Below are positions 6,311 to 12,559 of a stretch of DNA of 64,000 bases, piece after piece. Each line of letters opens with the position of its first letter. Within the stretch, counting starts at the first letter, position 1. This stretch comes from Cyanidioschyzon merolae (taxonomy: Eukaryota): assembly GCA_000091205.1 (NCBI GenBank), contig AP006487.2. The stretch is one strand, 5' to 3'. A program made the position numbers and the translations under genes. The notes below the pieces were generated by a model, which was not told the DNA's origin, did no database searches, and saw nothing but the letters and a program-made list of their open reading frames with translations.

Positions 6311-6910
6311 GTCACAATAAAACGGGAGGGGGCCTGTTCGATATCTCGAGCGAACACGCTCAAGTAGGGTTTCCTTCCCACTTGCGCCAAGACCAGTCCT
6401 CACAGGCTCTATCTGTGACTGCCTCTGTTTCCTCTCTCTTATCTCCTGCTGTAAACACGCGAGTCGTTCATGCCCCTCCAGCTCCGTAGTCAGCAGTCGA
6501 AGGGTGTTGATATTCGCGTTAATGTCCGGATCTGGGAGCTTCCCGCCGCTGACGACGCATTTCAAGCGCAGGCGGGAGGGACGATCTTCGCCTCACTTGT
6601 CTTCCGCAGCGTCTTTGCATGCATGCTTGACGCGCCCAGCGCAACGGTGGCAGTTGACTGCGGTCAGGTGCTCCCACATGACCACCATAACGCGTCCAGA
6701 TCAGAGCGCCGCATGTAACTTTTGAACGCTTGCTTCCTGGCTCGATACATGCGATAGACGGGTCCACGTGGGCTCCACTGCATGCCCTCATTCGTTGCGA
6801 TGCTCGGTGTCGTCCCAGAAGATCACGGGCATCTGCTGGGCGATCTCCTGGACGTGTACTCTGTTAGCTGTGCACGCAAGCCCACGCTGCTCCAGTCGAT
6901 ACGGGATTTG
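6311..6910. repeat. Dispersed repeat family R, copy 1 (600 bp)
   Basis: About 98.5% identical (roughly 9 mismatches by eye) to 11960..12559 in direct orientation. Both begin gtcacaataaaacgggaggggg and end ccagtcgatacgggatttg. Confidence 0.9.
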
Positions 6911-7299
6911 AGAAGCGCAACAATGTCCATGAATAATCAAGGGCCAAAAGAGTTATCCAAGGTAAACAACGAGCCGGGAAATTCCGATTCGTCTACGCTA
7001 CCTTTTTCCAATTCGTTGACGCACGCTCCACTGGAACCGTCCGCTGAGGTGAATCCGCCTCGAGTCCAAAACCCGTTCCGATGCAAACACAAGAAGCGGA
7101 AGCCTCTGGGTGTAAATTCAAGGGCTTCATCATACTACCGCGGAGTATGGTTGCGCCTACGGCTGTTAAGAAATGAGAATTTGTCTTTCGAATGGAATAG
7201 ATGAGATAACGTGGGAGCATCGGTAACCTTTGGCATGGGGCGTAGAAGAAGTCGTCAAGGGAACAAGCAGACAATATCCGTCGTCAGCCTAGCAGCGCG

Positions 7300-7500
7300 A
7301 ATTTCGGCGCTCATGAGTTGCCATGAAGCAGCAAGATCGAAACCTTTGAGACGTTCTATTTGAGAATGCTGTGCGTAATGAACGGGGAAGATCGACGGTC
7401 TGAGATTATCATGTGGAAAATGAAAACGGTTACTGCACGAACCCTTATTCAAGAGCGTCGCAAATCATCTTGACTCCGGTGACGAATCGAACTCTAGTGA
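7300..7500. repeat. Fragment related to the 3' part of repeat family X (compare 17650..17880)
   Basis: Shared blocks are aagatcgaaacctttg[a/c]ga and agagcgtcgc[a/g]aatcatctt..tcc[g/a]gtgacg. Confidence 0.6.
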
Positions 7501-8593
7501 CCACAATCTGAAGGAGTTACGAAGAAAGGACCACCCGAAATCCTCAAACGACTTACGCATCCATTACTTCTCATGACTGCGCTAGGAACATTAAGTCTGG
7601 AAATCGAAGCAGAAGGTCGGAAAATACTTCGAAAGGCATGAATAAGGCGGGCAGCTTGGTACACCATTTTAATCCTAAACTGGTGGTAAGCATTCAAAAT
7701 TGTAAATAGAACTGCACTTTTGAGTGCCATTTCTTGGAAATGGTACTGGAAGGAAGAACTGTTAATACATGAAGCTTCATCACAAGACTGCTTGAACAAC
7801 CTTTGCGGGCCGTTTCCGATGCTGAAAAGACGCGACGGTCCCGCTCTAAAGATAAACCAACGTCATGGATGGCGTGAAGTCGACCTTGAATCTATGGTCT
7901 CTGTGCGCGGTCGAGACGACCGTCTCGTGGCAATGCAGACTAGGTATCTATCCGAATTACATGTTTTCAAAAGAAAGAGCACGGAGCTTTCCATAGAATT
8001 TCCAGAACGCTTTTTTTGAAAAACTACAAAAAACCATTTTCCCAGCACGGGAGCATTTACAAACAGAGTCCGGGCTCGATTACGCTAGCCTGTTGACGCA
8101 CATCTGCACAAGTGAAACGCTGTAGCGTTTTCCATACACTGGTGCGTTATTTTGTAACACAAAGTCTTTTACTCACTGCTGACGCGATCATAAATTCTTG
8201 GAATTATATCACGTAAGGTCTGGCATCTCACAATACCAAAACATATTTAGTCTTGTCGCGCAGCTCCGCAGCATCAAGCTCGAGTCCGCATGGCGCTCTG
8301 GAATAAGTTCTCTTGAACGTTTGCTTGCTCTTGAAGTCAGTGCAACTCTTAGGCTGAAGCGCGTTCCAAGAGGGAATTTATGGTGGCTGCATACATGCAC
8401 GTAAAGGATCCTGATTCATGGCTCGATCAAGGGCATCATTATGCCCAGCGGGCATCACTGGCGCCACTGGCGGGAGCGACACGCTGATGCGTGTAGGTTG
8501 ATTTCGGAGCACGCATATGGCAGTCCATACGTGCGAGCGGCGCGCTGAGCTGCTCTTAATCTTCTCGCGTGTTGCTGGTATCGACGAAGACAC

Positions 8594-9679: not shown

Positions 9680-9752
9680 CTGGCTTCAGCAAGACCCAAA
9701 TGCCCCTTGCGGAATTCGAAATCCGTGCGCGCATTTGAAGAACAATCAAACG

Positions 9753-11489
9753 CTAATTTGCGGACGGGTGATAAGCTTCAGCAAGACACAAAAGTCTTTC
9801 AGCTGCTGTCGCCAATTCTTGCCGCGACCAAGGATCGTGCGGCAGATTCGGCAGGCAAGCACGACACCAGAGTTGCAATGCCCAAGAATGGATATCGGCT
9901 CCGGTGCTGCGAGACTGTTCCAGCCTCGTCCTGCAATGCAGAAAATGCACGAAACTTTTCCCTTGATCATCGTGTCTCTCACCGTGAGCTGCATACCGTC
10001 GAATTTCGCGTGGAAATGGATGCGGTAGCATTAGGACCGTCTTTGATTCAGAAGTAAAACTGCTTTTTTGATTCAAAAGCTCATCTATGGAGGCGGTGTC
10101 CAAGGCACGGCAAAAGTTGCTGAGAGCCTCTGGTAAGGTAGACTCATCATTCGCAATAGGATGCTTGACGAAGCCAGGCAGCCGTTGTTTCAGTCGCATA
10201 CACCATCCCTTATCGACGAATTGCCGGAGCCAGCCTGCCGTGGATAGATTGCAAAGATCGAAGTTCTGCGTCGGTACGTCATTGCTCCCGGCAGAGTTCC
10301 TAAACAGCGAAAATGGTGAAAATCCGGCCCGCAAATCGAATATGCAACGATGGCGAAGGCCCAAAAGGTTACCGCTCATTGCGACTCGAAGCCTATGCTC
10401 CAGCGGATGGGCGTCCAATATTCTATTCACAGCTAGCGCGGTGGCAACACTCGCAGTCCAGCCAAACGAATTACAAGTAAGATCCTCGAAAGACAGGCCC
10501 CGTGCATCTAGCGTCCACAGCCGTTCGCGTTGCGTATTCCGCAGATTCCTCGCACGAACAGGCAAGTATGCGATGTGATCATTTTCCCCCGAAGCACTCG
10601 ACGTGTACAAGCTGCTAACAAGTAGCGCCTCTCCAATTTGCCCCACATTGACATCCAGCTTCGGATCAATGGAAAAGATAAAAAAATTCTTTTTCGTGCC
10701 GAAAAGATCCGAAAGTTCTTCAACGAGCCCTGATAATACACCACCATTCCCTGCGTGCTCCAGGGACCCATGGATGTCAAATCCCGTGAGAGAATCACAG
10801 GTTTCCGCGAAATAACGTACTGCATCCAGGAGCTCTTCGGATTGTTTTTTGCTTTGCACGGCATCGTAGCCCCTTTGAAATAACTCTAGGTCGCGAACAA
10901 ACTGGTTCGATAATGGTGTGTCTGCGATATCGGGAATTCTGGTTTCAGCAAACGTGGTCGAGGATGCCTTTGTAGACTCCAGATCGTGCAGCAGAGTCTG
11001 AGTTCGAATTTTTGACCGACTACTCAGGGGGAACGCTTGGAAGTCTGTCCAGTGCCGTACACTTTCCTCGAAATTATACGCGTCCGGTGATTTCACCGTT
11101 CCGGCCTGTCGATCAACCTGAAAAGCATGCCTTCTGTCATGTTGGCTGGAAGAGAGGCGTTCAGTCGGACCCTTCCATAACGTCTTCGAAATTGGATCTT
11201 CGTGCGGTTCGAGTGCCCTGCTGATAGGAGCTTCACTGCAATCAAGTGAACAGTGATCCAGTGCAACAAGTCTCGGCACGACTTGGCCAGCAGTAGGTCC
11301 TTCATCTGGCTCCCAGAAAAACTCCCGACGCGCTGCCCAAAACCTTTCCTCGACAGACGAGAGACATTCGTGAGAAACCCCACCACTCGAGACCAGAGTG
11401 CTATTGTAATATAAGAGGTTCCAAAAGTGTGACCCGCAGTAGCTTGCAGCTTCTCCCAGCTGTACTACAACAGAGTTTTTCTCTACCAT
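9753..11489 (-). CDS. Misato/DML1-like tubulin-superfamily protein
   Basis: The N-terminus VVVQLGEAASYCGSHFWN matches the Misato/tubulin GTPase N-terminal signature (Misato ..LTLQLG.....G.HFWN). A length of 578 aa is typical for Misato/DML1. Confidence 0.55.
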   Translation of the reverse strand: MVEKNSVVVQLGEAASYCGSHFWNLLYYNSTLVSSGGVSHECLSSVEERFWAARREFFWEPDEGPTAGQVVPRLVALDHCSLDCSEAPISRALEPHEDPISKTLWKGPTERLSSSQHDRRHAFQVDRQAGTVKSPDAYNFEESVRHWTDFQAFPLSSRSKIRTQTLLHDLESTKASSTTFAETRIPDIADTPLSNQFVRDLELFQRGYDAVQSKKQSEELLDAVRYFAETCDSLTGFDIHGSLEHAGNGGVLSGLVEELSDLFGTKKNFFIFSIDPKLDVNVGQIGEALLVSSLYTSSASGENDHIAYLPVRARNLRNTQRERLWTLDARGLSFEDLTCNSFGWTASVATALAVNRILDAHPLEHRLRVAMSGNLLGLRHRCIFDLRAGFSPFSLFRNSAGSNDVPTQNFDLCNLSTAGWLRQFVDKGWCMRLKQRLPGFVKHPIANDESTLPEALSNFCRALDTASIDELLNQKSSFTSESKTVLMLPHPFPREIRRYAAHGERHDDQGKSFVHFLHCRTRLEQSRSTGADIHSWALQLWCRACLPNLPHDPWSRQELATAAERLLCLAEAYHPSAN

Positions 11490-11959
11490 ATGATCACCTG
11501 TCGGCCCCGCTCAGGCGCCCGAAAAGCAAGCAGAATAGACTGAAAAACTTGGTTCTCCAAAACTGAAGCGACTCCGAACTCACCTGACTTACCCGTTGGA
11601 GTGATTTATTTCTTACGCGGCAGCACGTCTCGCAGGGCTGGTAACGCACTCGCTCATAGTCGCTAAGGCGGTCTCTGCCGGTCGCTGGTACCTGAGGTGC
11701 GCTCACAAACCAACAGCTGCACTGCAGCGAGGACGCACTATTTGAGAACGGTAACAACGAGCAGGACTGCGGCCCGTGCGGAAGAGTTCGTTAGAAACCG
11801 TAAAAAAGAAAAAGTTTCCCTACCAGCACGTAAGAATGAAAAAATTTCGTACAGGAAAATGCTTGGGCTCCAAATCAACGCCGGCATTTCCGCGAAGAAA
11901 CAAGACAGCGAACATGTTGCCGCCGTTCTATTCATGGGATTGCCGCATGCTCCGCCAAA

Positions 11960-12559
11960 GTCACAATAAAACGGGAGGGGGCCTGTTCGATATCTCGAGC
12001 GAACACGCTCAAGTAGGGTTTCCTTCCCACTTGCGCCAAGACCAGTCCTCACAGGCTCTATCTGTGACTGCCTCCGTTTCCTCTCTCTTATCTCCTGCTG
12101 TAAACACGCGAGTCGTTCATGCCCCTCCAGCTCCGTAGTCAGCAGTCGAAGGGTGTTGATATTCGCGTTAATGTCCGGATCTGGGAGCTTCCCGCCGCTG
12201 ACGACGCATTTCAAGCGCAGGCGGGAGTGACGATCTTCGCCTCACTTGTCTTCCGCAGCGTCTTTGCACGCATGCTTGACGCGCCCAGCGCAACGGTGGC
12301 AGTTGACTGCGGTCAGGTGCTCCCACATGGCCACCATAACGCGTCCAGATCAGAGCGCCGTATGTAACTCTTGAACGCTTGCTTCCTGGCTCGATACATG
12401 CGATAGACGGGTCCACTTGGGCTCCACTGCATGCCCTCATCCGTTGCGATGCTCGGTGTCGTCCCAGAAGATCACGGGCATCTGCTGGGCGATCTCCTGG
12501 ACGTGTGCTCTGTTAGCTGTGCACGCAAGCCCACGCTGCTCCAGTCGATACGGGATTTG
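11960..12559. repeat. Dispersed repeat family R, copy 2 (600 bp)
   Basis: Near-identical direct copy of 6311..6910. Confidence 0.9.

Follow-up and report, generated by a model that had tools for sequence, protein, structure and literature searches.

How two conserved cellular genes of Cyanidioschyzon merolae 10D came to lie between nearly identical direct repeats is the question raised by a locus on chromosome 5, of which a stretch of 64 kb (hereafter the window) was analysed. Self-BLAST places the two repeats, R1 and R2, at 6310-6910 and 11959-12559, in direct orientation and with 98.50% identity over 601 bp (9 mismatches, 0 gaps, E=0), and a second, independent repeat finder also reports the pair (family D6). 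The near-identity with about nine mismatches given in a preliminary description is borne out, with coordinates that were one base off. The sole two long open reading frames between the copies are, as that description had it, the following:

8594..9679, plus strand: SPO11/topoisomerase VI-A homologue of 361 amino acids (BAM79299.1, annotated 'similar to DNA topoisomerase VI subunit A'), Pfam TOP6A-Spo11_Toprim at 2.6e-17.
9753..11489, minus strand: Misato homologue CYME_CME072C (CME072C) of 578 amino acids (BAM79300.1), with Pfam Misato/Tubulin_3 domains.

By exact look-up, the two accessions are consecutive protein records of C. merolae 10D. It had been proposed that the repeats could drive deletion or duplication of the SPO11-Misato block, and that the block may have been mobilised as a unit.

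A first part of the answer is that R belongs to a larger unit, forming the 3' third of a repeat of about 1.4 kb, R-X, present in five copies in the window, all in the same orientation and pairwise about 55–60% identical. The features are:

6301..7684, minus strand: c1, complete R-X relic, Tc1/mariner-IS630 (DDE_3) type; tblastn with the intact relative P0136 (see below) at 7371-6838, E=6e-4; phmmer 1.6e-3.
6310..6910, minus strand: R1, 3' third of c1, with decayed transposase codons ~231-318 and ~330 nt of 3' sequence to the element end.
11950..13292, minus strand: c2, complete R-X relic; tblastn with P0136 at 12834-12553, E=1.5e-7; phmmer 1.9e-9.
11959..12559, minus strand: R2, 3' third of c2, whose transposase alignment stops at '...NIALHKS|R', codon 231, which is the R boundary.
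16711..17971, minus strand: c3, full R-X relic in which the transposase start is kept (aligned from Met1 at 17962); phmmer 4.4e-8.
17096-17626: patch of 531 bp in c3, 99% identical to c4.
27868..28740, minus strand: c4, truncated R-X relic, with 28210-28740 as the 99% patch shared with c3 and the rest about 62% identical to c3; phmmer 1.8e-4.
35147..36488, minus strand: c5, full R-X relic, in which the DDE domain (35964-35641) is best preserved; Pfam DDE_3 E=0.003; tblastn 5e-12; phmmer 2.5e-13.

The X fragments that had been seen after each R exist but do not stand alone, as the homology of c1 and c2 runs unbroken through the R boundary (6301-7562 against 11950-13215, about 55% identity past it). 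Also confirmed was the third, diverged R (27868-28209), with an X core (28210-28740) after it and a copy of family T (26448-27823) before it, and the view of R and X as one composite unit next to T holds in the form of a five-copy element of about 1.4 kb that adjoins transposon relics.

Judged by sequence similarity, the minus strand of R-X is a decayed transposase gene of the Tc1/mariner-IS630 superfamily (Pfam DDE_3). Most searches gave little: single open reading frames yielded one weak Pfam match (DDE_3 in c5, E=0.003) and E=0.1 with the NCBIfam IS630 model, while the R-X profile found no match in the PDB, the consensus pseudo-protein none in a word-indexed protein search, and Pythium mariner transposases were without significant match to R-X. 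The class was settled only when an exhaustive profile search with the minus-strand reading frame pieces, covering 1.84 billion proteins, returned DDE_3 proteins. It gave 93 proteins at E<=1e-3, which also overturned the idea of a low-copy family confined to the window, and Pfam DDE_3 was found in 5 of the 66 that were scanned (best 4.9e-27). The intact relative P0136, of 318 amino acids, carries DDE_3 (2.4e-30) together with HTH_28 and HTH_Tnp_Tc3_2, and the minus strand of the R-X consensus aligns to its residues 42-256 (phmmer, E=3e-18). As in a DDE_3 transposase, the HTH region precedes the DDE domain, the alignment of R-X with P0136 covering residues 1-256; the motifs AIDETGF, LMDNIAFHKS and PPYSPxxNP occur in the right order, and the length of about 1.4 kb is typical for the superfamily.

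The copies differ from functional members of the superfamily in that all five are dead and none is an active autonomous element. From the catalytic triad D145/D223/E258, the first aspartate is kept in c5 alone, the second is a stop or replaced in every aligned copy, and all copies have a stop codon in place of the glutamate; several stops and frameshifts mark each copy, and in each of the six frames the first, second and third codon positions have diverged equally. Neither terminal inverted repeats nor TA duplications can be recognised: the four copies examined gave inverted matches at chance level only, the left flanks of c1 (..aaccg|AGTCAC) and c2 (..gccaa|AGTCAC) lack a terminal TA, and the 5' ends of R-X are not placeable to the base. 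Loss of inverted repeats is expected after about 40% divergence and is no argument against Tc1/mariner descent. The sequence of about 330 nt 3' of the transposase is long for a mariner element.

On the opposite strand, each of the five copies has an open frame, with 1 stop where 8.3 would be expected (P~0.002). It was rejected as a real gene: no frame displays amino-acid conservation, database matches were restricted to orthologues of the same five loci, and AlphaFold gives a poor model (pLDDT 43). It is regarded as a depletion of stop codons, of unexplained cause, on the strand antisense to the transposase relic.

These observations bear directly on the notion that R1 and R2 are the ends of an LTR-like or composite mobile unit that brought SPO11 and Misato. 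The pair, direct, of about 600 bp, 98.5% identical and 5.6 kb apart, has the textbook outline of LTRs. However, R is an internal piece of a larger diverged element and runs unbroken into diverged transposase sequence; it lacks TG...CA ends, and the five bases outside the pair (aaccg before R1, tgcaa after R2) form no target-site duplication. There is no gag or pol, the interior consisting of two conserved cellular genes that are fixed in all sampled strains. The flanking elements c1 and c2 are catalytically dead and 42–45% diverged outside R, and a search of the R-X copies found no inverted terminal repeats. Five spanning contigs from metagenomes of other populations show the block unchanged in position and structure, and among the contigs examined neither an empty site nor a second location was found. 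In addition, no LTR elements have been reported for the C. merolae genome (Nozaki 2007). The LTR-like or composite reading is effectively refuted, any residual chance being negligible, and the proposed mobilisation of the block as a unit is not supported.

The window also contains other transposon remnants. The members of family T are:

13326..14851, plus strand: T1, old T copy, head-to-head with c2; Pfam DDE_3 E=0.002; Fanzor1 tblastn at 14539-14793, E=3e-17.
26448..27823, plus strand: T2, young T copy, 98.3% identical to T3 and tail-to-tail with c4.
40961..42336, plus strand: T3, young T copy.

In family T, T1 included, a DDE_3 transposase relic is coupled to a C-terminal piece of Fanzor1 and a 3' end like that of CMe-1A, a combination that recalls the Pythium mariner-plus-Fanzor1 elements (Bao and Jurka 2013); no convincing terminal inverted repeats or target-site duplications were found at the young T2 and T3. 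With the CMe-1A consensus and the Fanzor1 protein taken from the supplement of Bao and Jurka (2013), the CMe-1 Fanzor1 protein matches the 3' part of T as well as family U (E down to 2e-25), and two 5' fragments of CMe-1A lie in the window. Although R-X shares genome and window with these elements, no copy of it matches CMe-1A DNA or the Fanzor1 protein in blastn, tblastn or phmmer at E<=1, and membership was rejected. The Fanzor C-terminus HMM reached E=0.2 at best, an hhalign hint (E=0.0035) was lost after correction for 24 tests, and likenesses noted by eye (CHRC..., DPDINANIN) had no support on testing. R-X and CMe-1A are different families. The Fanzor1-bearing CMe-1A is probably the 253-copy, 3.2-kb repeat with a WSV486-like reading frame of Nozaki et al. 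(2007).

If R is part of an old, decayed element, its near-identity in c1 and c2 calls for another explanation, and we consider it likely that R1/R2 is a gene-conversion tract between two old, inactive Tc1/mariner-IS630 relics that by chance flank SPO11 and Misato. Identity between c1 and c2 is 97–100% up to alignment column ~737 and then falls to 53–60% within 30 bp, with no gradient. Relative to c3, c4 and c5 the R/X junction keeps the register, with no indel, and it lies at about codon 231; past it, the longest runs identical between c1 and c2 are 16 and 8 nt. This right boundary sits in the middle of a transposase pseudogene and is no element boundary, which marks R as a conversion tract. 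Trees differ by segment: c1 and c2 group as sisters in R (98.5%), where c3/c4 are at about 62%, whereas the X core pairs c3 with c4 (99%) and leaves c1/c2 at about 55%. The X cores of c4 and c3, 28210-28740 and 17096-17626, are 99.06% identical over 531 bp and form a further sharp patch within about 62% identity; another occurs between the Fanzor relics U1 and U2 (357 bp at 95.5% within ~62–67%). Three repeat pairs in 64 kb thus carry patches of 350–600 bp at 95–99% identity inside relics that are otherwise about 55–67% identical.

Ectopic (interlocus) conversion among dispersed repeats is known from yeast Ty/delta elements, mammalian Alu and LINE copies and duplicated genes. The R pair resembles such cases as an abrupt-edged, in-register block of near-identity inside two diverged paralogues, with one edge at the limit of homology and the copies 5.6 kb apart on one chromosome. 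We infer a repair mechanism in which c1 and c2, members of an old family with copies about 55–60% identical, lay on the minus strand on either side of SPO11 and Misato; a DNA break in one relic would have been repaired with the other as template, replacing, in register, the 3' end of the element through transposase codon ~231. The event would date to about the divergence of the sampled C. merolae strains, as the paralogues differ by 1.5% and the strains by about 1.2%. C. merolae lacks classical end-joining (PMC6635534), and the reliance of the alga on homologous repair would favour such conversions.

Conversion is not without difficulties. The surroundings of R are only about 55–60% identical, far below the usual level, and canonical homologous recombination should be very inefficient there; a single recent conversion thus needs short-homology priming or repeated homogenisation, both hypothetical here. 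Since the left edge of the tract is the element end, there is no homology to anchor the second end of the repair. R may have gone through several rounds of homogenisation, with the adjacent divergence fixing its boundary. A third copy of R elsewhere in the 10D genome, beyond the window, may have been the donor. Comparison across strains leaves site 549 as the single paralogue-specific position, while at site 483 the states of the two copies are swapped in 10D relative to other strains. R1 equals R2 in the five spanning metagenome contigs, with two haplotypes, but repeat collapse in graph assembly gives the same result; this equality is no evidence of concerted evolution because assemblers give collapsed copies one sequence.

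Two explanations that do without conversion can be considered. One is that c1 and c2 are young insertions of two modular masters that shared a near-identical R while their X modules were deeply diverged. Repeat families of C. merolae are documented to share modules, such as the 5' 635 bp that CMe-1A has in common with TE-N2_CMe (Bao and Jurka 2013), and the two full T copies at 98.3% identity indicate that some elements moved or were copied recently. Nevertheless, the catalytic residues are missing from every R-X copy, with a common stop at the glutamate position, the sampled strains all have both c1 and c2, and the plus-strand reading frame spanning the R/X junction matched only orthologues of the five window copies. 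In the JGI metagenomes, moreover, an R 20-mer matched only contigs from the c1 and c2 loci, so that young R was not found elsewhere; R is not a ubiquitous short repeat at this identity, a possibility that the preliminary description had allowed for. Modular masters are therefore improbable. The other is purifying selection on R for a regulatory role or a function as non-coding RNA; R might, for instance, be an outward promoter for the minus-strand genes, in keeping with the position of the left end of each R 260–470 bp upstream of a minus-strand gene start (a ferredoxin-like gene and Misato). Identity of 98.5% over all 601 positions beside 55% is unlike selection on a motif or RNA, the homologous segment in c3, c4 and c5 is only about 55–60% identical and stands in other contexts, and no Rfam family or tRNA matched anywhere in the window. 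Such selection is very improbable.

That recombination of R1 and R2 deletes or duplicates the block is unproven: one deletion-type and one circle-type contig exist, but the five spanning contigs have the normal order and a further contig signals repeat collapse. Contig L007 reads 3452..6309, one R, 12560..17423, and contig L010 reads 11105..11958, R, 6911..11227, with ends that overlap by 123 bp. Taken at face value, these junctions would represent crossing-over variants, a deletion allele without SPO11 and Misato and a 5.65-kb circle or tandem duplication. The metagenome of L007 (3300005861), however, also holds contig L030, which consists of R1[311-601], SPO11, Misato and R2[1-121] and ends inside R on both sides. 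Because L030 holds the 'missing' block and the R 20-mer occurs once in this assembly, L007 is explained by collapse of the repeat in assembly, with the loop omitted; a contig with overlapping ends such as L010 is expected as a graph product of any direct repeat. Both look like assembly artefacts, and real variants are improbable to much the same degree as modular masters. Contig L032, in which an apparently shortened SPO11 is fused with an AT-rich aldolase gene, was judged a chimeric assembly. The two contigs would be real under a broader proposal, to which we give a slightly better though still poor chance: that the sharp patches in the three repeat pairs reflect an unusual repair regime of this haploid alga without classical end-joining, in which breaks are routinely patched from very diverged ectopic copies and pairing of R1 with R2 occasionally deletes or circularises the SPO11-Misato block in natural populations.

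Conversion between dead transposon copies thus offers an ordinary explanation for a striking repeat, and the finding matters little when taken alone. It removes the suggestion of a meiotic gene in a mobile cassette. Beyond the locus, the 'extremely transposon-poor' genome of C. merolae, for which the published count of class II elements is eight, probably holds many unannotated decayed relics of the mariner type: the profile search gave about 90 protein clusters at 50% identity, part of which were checked, and the hypothetical protein CME048C is one annotated relic of this type. The mosaic identity of C. merolae repeats fits with frequent homology-guided repair, and is relevant to gene targeting and to the repeat-aware assembly of environmental Cyanidiales genomes.

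Self-BLAST of the window aligned the two flanking repeats, R1 (6310-6910) and R2 (11959-12559), over 601 bp at 98.5% identity with nine mismatches and no gaps, so that the direct, near-identical pair of the preliminary description is confirmed, with coordinates right to one base. This identity is far beyond chance. The interior consists of two conserved cellular genes, both identified by exact look-up:

8594-9679, plus strand: SPO11/TopoVI-A homologue, BAM79299.1 (Pfam TopoVI-A/Spo11 Toprim domain, 2.6e-17)
9753-11489, minus strand: Misato homologue, CME072C (Pfam Misato/tubulin domains)

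The former is recorded in C. merolae 10D as 'similar to DNA topoisomerase VI subunit A', and a Spo11 homologue of this alga was already on record (PMC2488364). Judged by the CME locus tags, the window belongs to chromosome 5. A more sensitive self-comparison extended the homology between the two repeat loci, c1 and c2, to about 1.3 kb (6301-7562 versus 11950-13215), and self-comparison with family alignment placed three further copies in the window:

16711-17971, minus strand: c3, R-X copy
27868-28740, minus strand: c4, R-X copy, truncated
35147-36488, minus strand: c5, R-X copy

All five copies have the same orientation and are pairwise about 55-60% identical. Since homology is unbroken across R and the sequence to its right, X, the two form a single element, as had been proposed, of which R is merely the left-hand third. 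The X core of c4 (28210-28740) matches c3 (17096-17626) at 99.06% over 531 bp in the self-BLAST. The copies have drifted neutrally, as codon positions 1, 2 and 3 are equally diverged among them and no frame has additional amino-acid conservation.

Single ORFs gave little: that of c5 matched Pfam DDE_3 weakly (E=0.003), and an R-X ORF matched NCBIfam IS630 more weakly still (E=0.1). When a profile of the stop-free minus-strand ORF pieces of c1-c5 was searched exhaustively against 1.84 billion proteins, 93 proteins were found at E<=1e-3, 16 of them at <=1e-10, with the consensus ...AIDETxF...GYAxRGxRL...SWTRTxVIAAIAS.... Pfam DDE_3 was present in 5 of the 66 matched proteins scanned (best 4.9e-27), and the annotated C. 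merolae 'hypothetical protein' CME048C falls within one matched cluster. An intact relative of 318 aa, P0136, from a brine metagenome contig (L033), carries DDE_3 (2.4e-30) plus HTH domains and aligns with the R-X consensus (minus strand, E=3e-18) and with the single copies c5 (2.5e-13), c2 (1.9e-9), c3 (4.4e-8, beginning at Met1), c4 (1.8e-4) and c1 (1.6e-3). These alignments identify R-X as the remains of a DNA transposon of the Tc1/mariner-IS630 type. Of the catalytic triad (D145, D223 and E258 in P0136), the first D is kept in c5 only, the second is absent from every aligned copy, and the position of the E is a stop in all five, so that the ancestor they share was perhaps defective already. 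Terminal inverted repeats have not survived in any R-X copy. On the 2343-bp contig L033, where positions 285-1241 encode this closest intact relative, another ORF, at least 337 aa long, follows downstream on the same strand (1331-2341). It has no Pfam match and its similarity to CMe-1 is not significant (E=0.3); by analogy with mariner-Fanzor elements, a Fanzor-like gene may begin here.

Antisense to the transposase relic, each of the five copies has an open plus-strand frame that crosses the R/X junction:

6758-7201, 12407-12736, 17178-17531, 28292-28645 and 35573-35968, plus strand: antisense frame

It contains one stop where 8.3 are expected (P~0.002). Divergence is neutral in every frame, a database search returned no relatives beyond these five loci, and AlphaFold gave no confident fold (pLDDT 43).

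P0136 also matches, on the plus strand, a second repeat family, T:

13326-14851, plus strand: T1, about 70% identical to T2 and T3
26448-27823, plus strand: T2, 98.3% identical to T3 over 1377 bp
40961-42336, plus strand: T3, 98.3% identical to T2 over 1377 bp

In family T a single plus-strand frame runs from a decayed DDE_3 transposase (LPLDNVTFH..., PPYAP*FNAIEEVF) into a Fanzor1 C-terminal segment (ELGCTLQRVE..., NRECNAANNMRR) and the element terminates in a CMe-1A-like 3' end, a layout that resembles the mariner-plus-Fanzor1 elements of Pythium. CMe-1A is a Fanzor1 element of C. merolae (Bao & Jurka 2013), which we infer to be the same as the 3.2-kb repeat present in 253 copies in this genome (Nozaki 2007). 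With the consensus and Fanzor1 protein taken from the supplement of Bao & Jurka (2013), membership of R-X in this family was rejected, since neither matches R-X, and a Fanzor-like C-terminal motif suspected in R was unsupported on testing. The CMe-1 queries do match the 3' parts of family T (E down to 2e-25) and other places in the window:

19238-21321, plus strand: U1, decayed Fanzor1 (TnpB-like), tblastn with CMe-1 Fanzor1, E~1e-15
54513-56296, plus strand: U2, decayed Fanzor1 (TnpB-like), tblastn with CMe-1 Fanzor1, E~1e-15
14870-15120, minus strand: CMe-1A 5'-end fragment (CMe-1A positions 4-252)
47335-47519, plus strand: CMe-1A 5'-end fragment (CMe-1A positions 67-249)

In U1 and U2 the motifs GIDPG and HRDLNASIN can still be read. 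Both 5' fragments are 71-75% identical to CMe-1A and represent a module common to CMe-1A and TE-N2_CMe. Between c3 and U1, 18349-18754 (plus strand) has weak DDE_3 transposase matches (E 0.02-0.12) and is perhaps another relic in a more advanced state of decay. The window also contains three tandem arrays:

2927-3850: 114-bp unit, about 6-8 copies, inside ORF 3001-3945
29960-30294: 82-bp unit, four copies
60598-61334: 77-bp unit, nine copies, 96-98% identity

The right boundary of R (6910 and 12559) corresponds to transposase codon ~231, just past the second-D motif (the c2 alignment reads ...NIALHKS up to the boundary and R beyond it), and because it lies inside the transposase relic it is not an element boundary. 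On the coding strand R starts ~88 codons before the relic ends and continues through ~330 nt of 3' sequence, its outer limit being where family homology ends (6301-6310). Copies c1 and c2 are 97-100% identical as far as alignment column ~737 and 53-60% identical past it; the drop takes a single 30-bp step, is not graded and is in register with c3, c4 and c5, and the longest identical runs beyond it are 16 and 8 nt. The c3/c4 patch is likewise conversion-like: the profile goes from ~62% to 100% to no homology, the right edge of the 531-bp patch being the truncation point of c4 and the remaining overlap ~62% identical. U1 and U2 share a sharp-edged 5' patch of 357 bp (95.5%) within surroundings of ~62-67%. 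Segment trees conflict: R alone groups c1 with c2, and the X core alone groups c3 with c4. Such a step-like, in-register profile with discordant trees is the mark of homology-guided copying from one paralogue to another and would not arise by insertion, selection or block duplication; the R patch is probably an ectopic gene conversion tract.

The SPO11-Misato block was also suggested to have been mobilised as a unit, and nothing supports this: the flanking elements are dead and ~45% diverged outside R, no matching duplication is present in the outer flanks, the interior is two conserved cellular genes, and every sample shares the one fixed arrangement. That the R pair resembles LTRs in outline is a coincidence of geometry.

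Ubiquity of R, which would have made the arrangement unremarkable, is not what was found. The R-X family is large but old, and near-identical R is not widespread: a 20-mer from its invariant part occurred in six stretches of JGI metagenomes, four at the c1/c2 loci and two as chance matches in unrelated DNA. Both repeats are spanned by five 12-14-kb contigs of other samples (L001, L019, L022, L023 and L024), and in each of them the sequence is flank, R, X1, SPO11, Misato, second R and X2. Crossing-over between R1 and R2 could yield real deletion and circle or tandem alleles, and junctions of both types were seen: L007 (JGI sample 3300005861) passes from the DNA left of R1 into one R and then X2, and L010 (Ga0123519) from the Misato side through R into X1, as a 5,649-bp cycle whose ends overlap by 123 bp. 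We nevertheless consider such alleles very improbable, as the five spanning contigs keep the normal order and the metagenome of L007 also yielded L030 (R1[311-601]-SPO11-Misato-R2[1-121]), with the R 20-mer found only once in that assembly, which is the pattern of a direct repeat collapsed by a graph assembler. L007 and L010 were therefore not accepted as real variants. By the same token, that R1 and R2 are exactly identical within the five spanning contigs is uninformative on concerted evolution. Among contigs with an anchor in unique flanking DNA, site 549 is the only consistently paralogue-specific site and site 483 is swapped in 10D relative to other strains, a pattern compatible with occasional exchange, not conclusive of it. 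A further contig, L032 (Ga0506591_001871), joins SPO11 from codon ~78 (its positions 1-1140, window 8826) to AT-rich DNA in which a class II aldolase gene lies, so that its 'SPO11' has 256 aa; it is most likely a chimeric assembly, and SPO11 is intact in all other contigs examined, e.g. L010.

Strain 10D differs from environmental strains by 1.1-1.3% over 12-14 kb, near the 1.5% between R1 and R2, which would place the last homogenisation of R roughly at the split of the sampled strains. The weak point of the gene conversion reading is that recombination is expected to be rare between DNA 55-60% identical. The simplest way out would be repeated re-homogenisation of R ever since the copies came into being, its boundary frozen by the adjoining divergence. 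C. merolae is readily transformed via homologous recombination. Because it also has no classical end-joining pathway (PMC6635534), templated repair from ectopic copies is plausible. Taken as a whole, the preliminary reading is right in part: the feature is a pair of mariner-type transposon relics, both dead, that share what is probably a recent gene-conversion tract, an event of an ordinary kind.

Relics of R-X, T, U and CMe-1A fragments make up ~15 kb of the 64-kb window (roughly 23%). For the C. merolae genome, ~5% interspersed repeat, 0.7% transposons and eight class II elements have been published; as ~90 diverged protein clusters, not all checked, are related to the R-X transposase family, the last of these counts looks too low. 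This 'simple' genome contains an unrecognised abundance of mariner-type relics, with repeats of mosaic identity.
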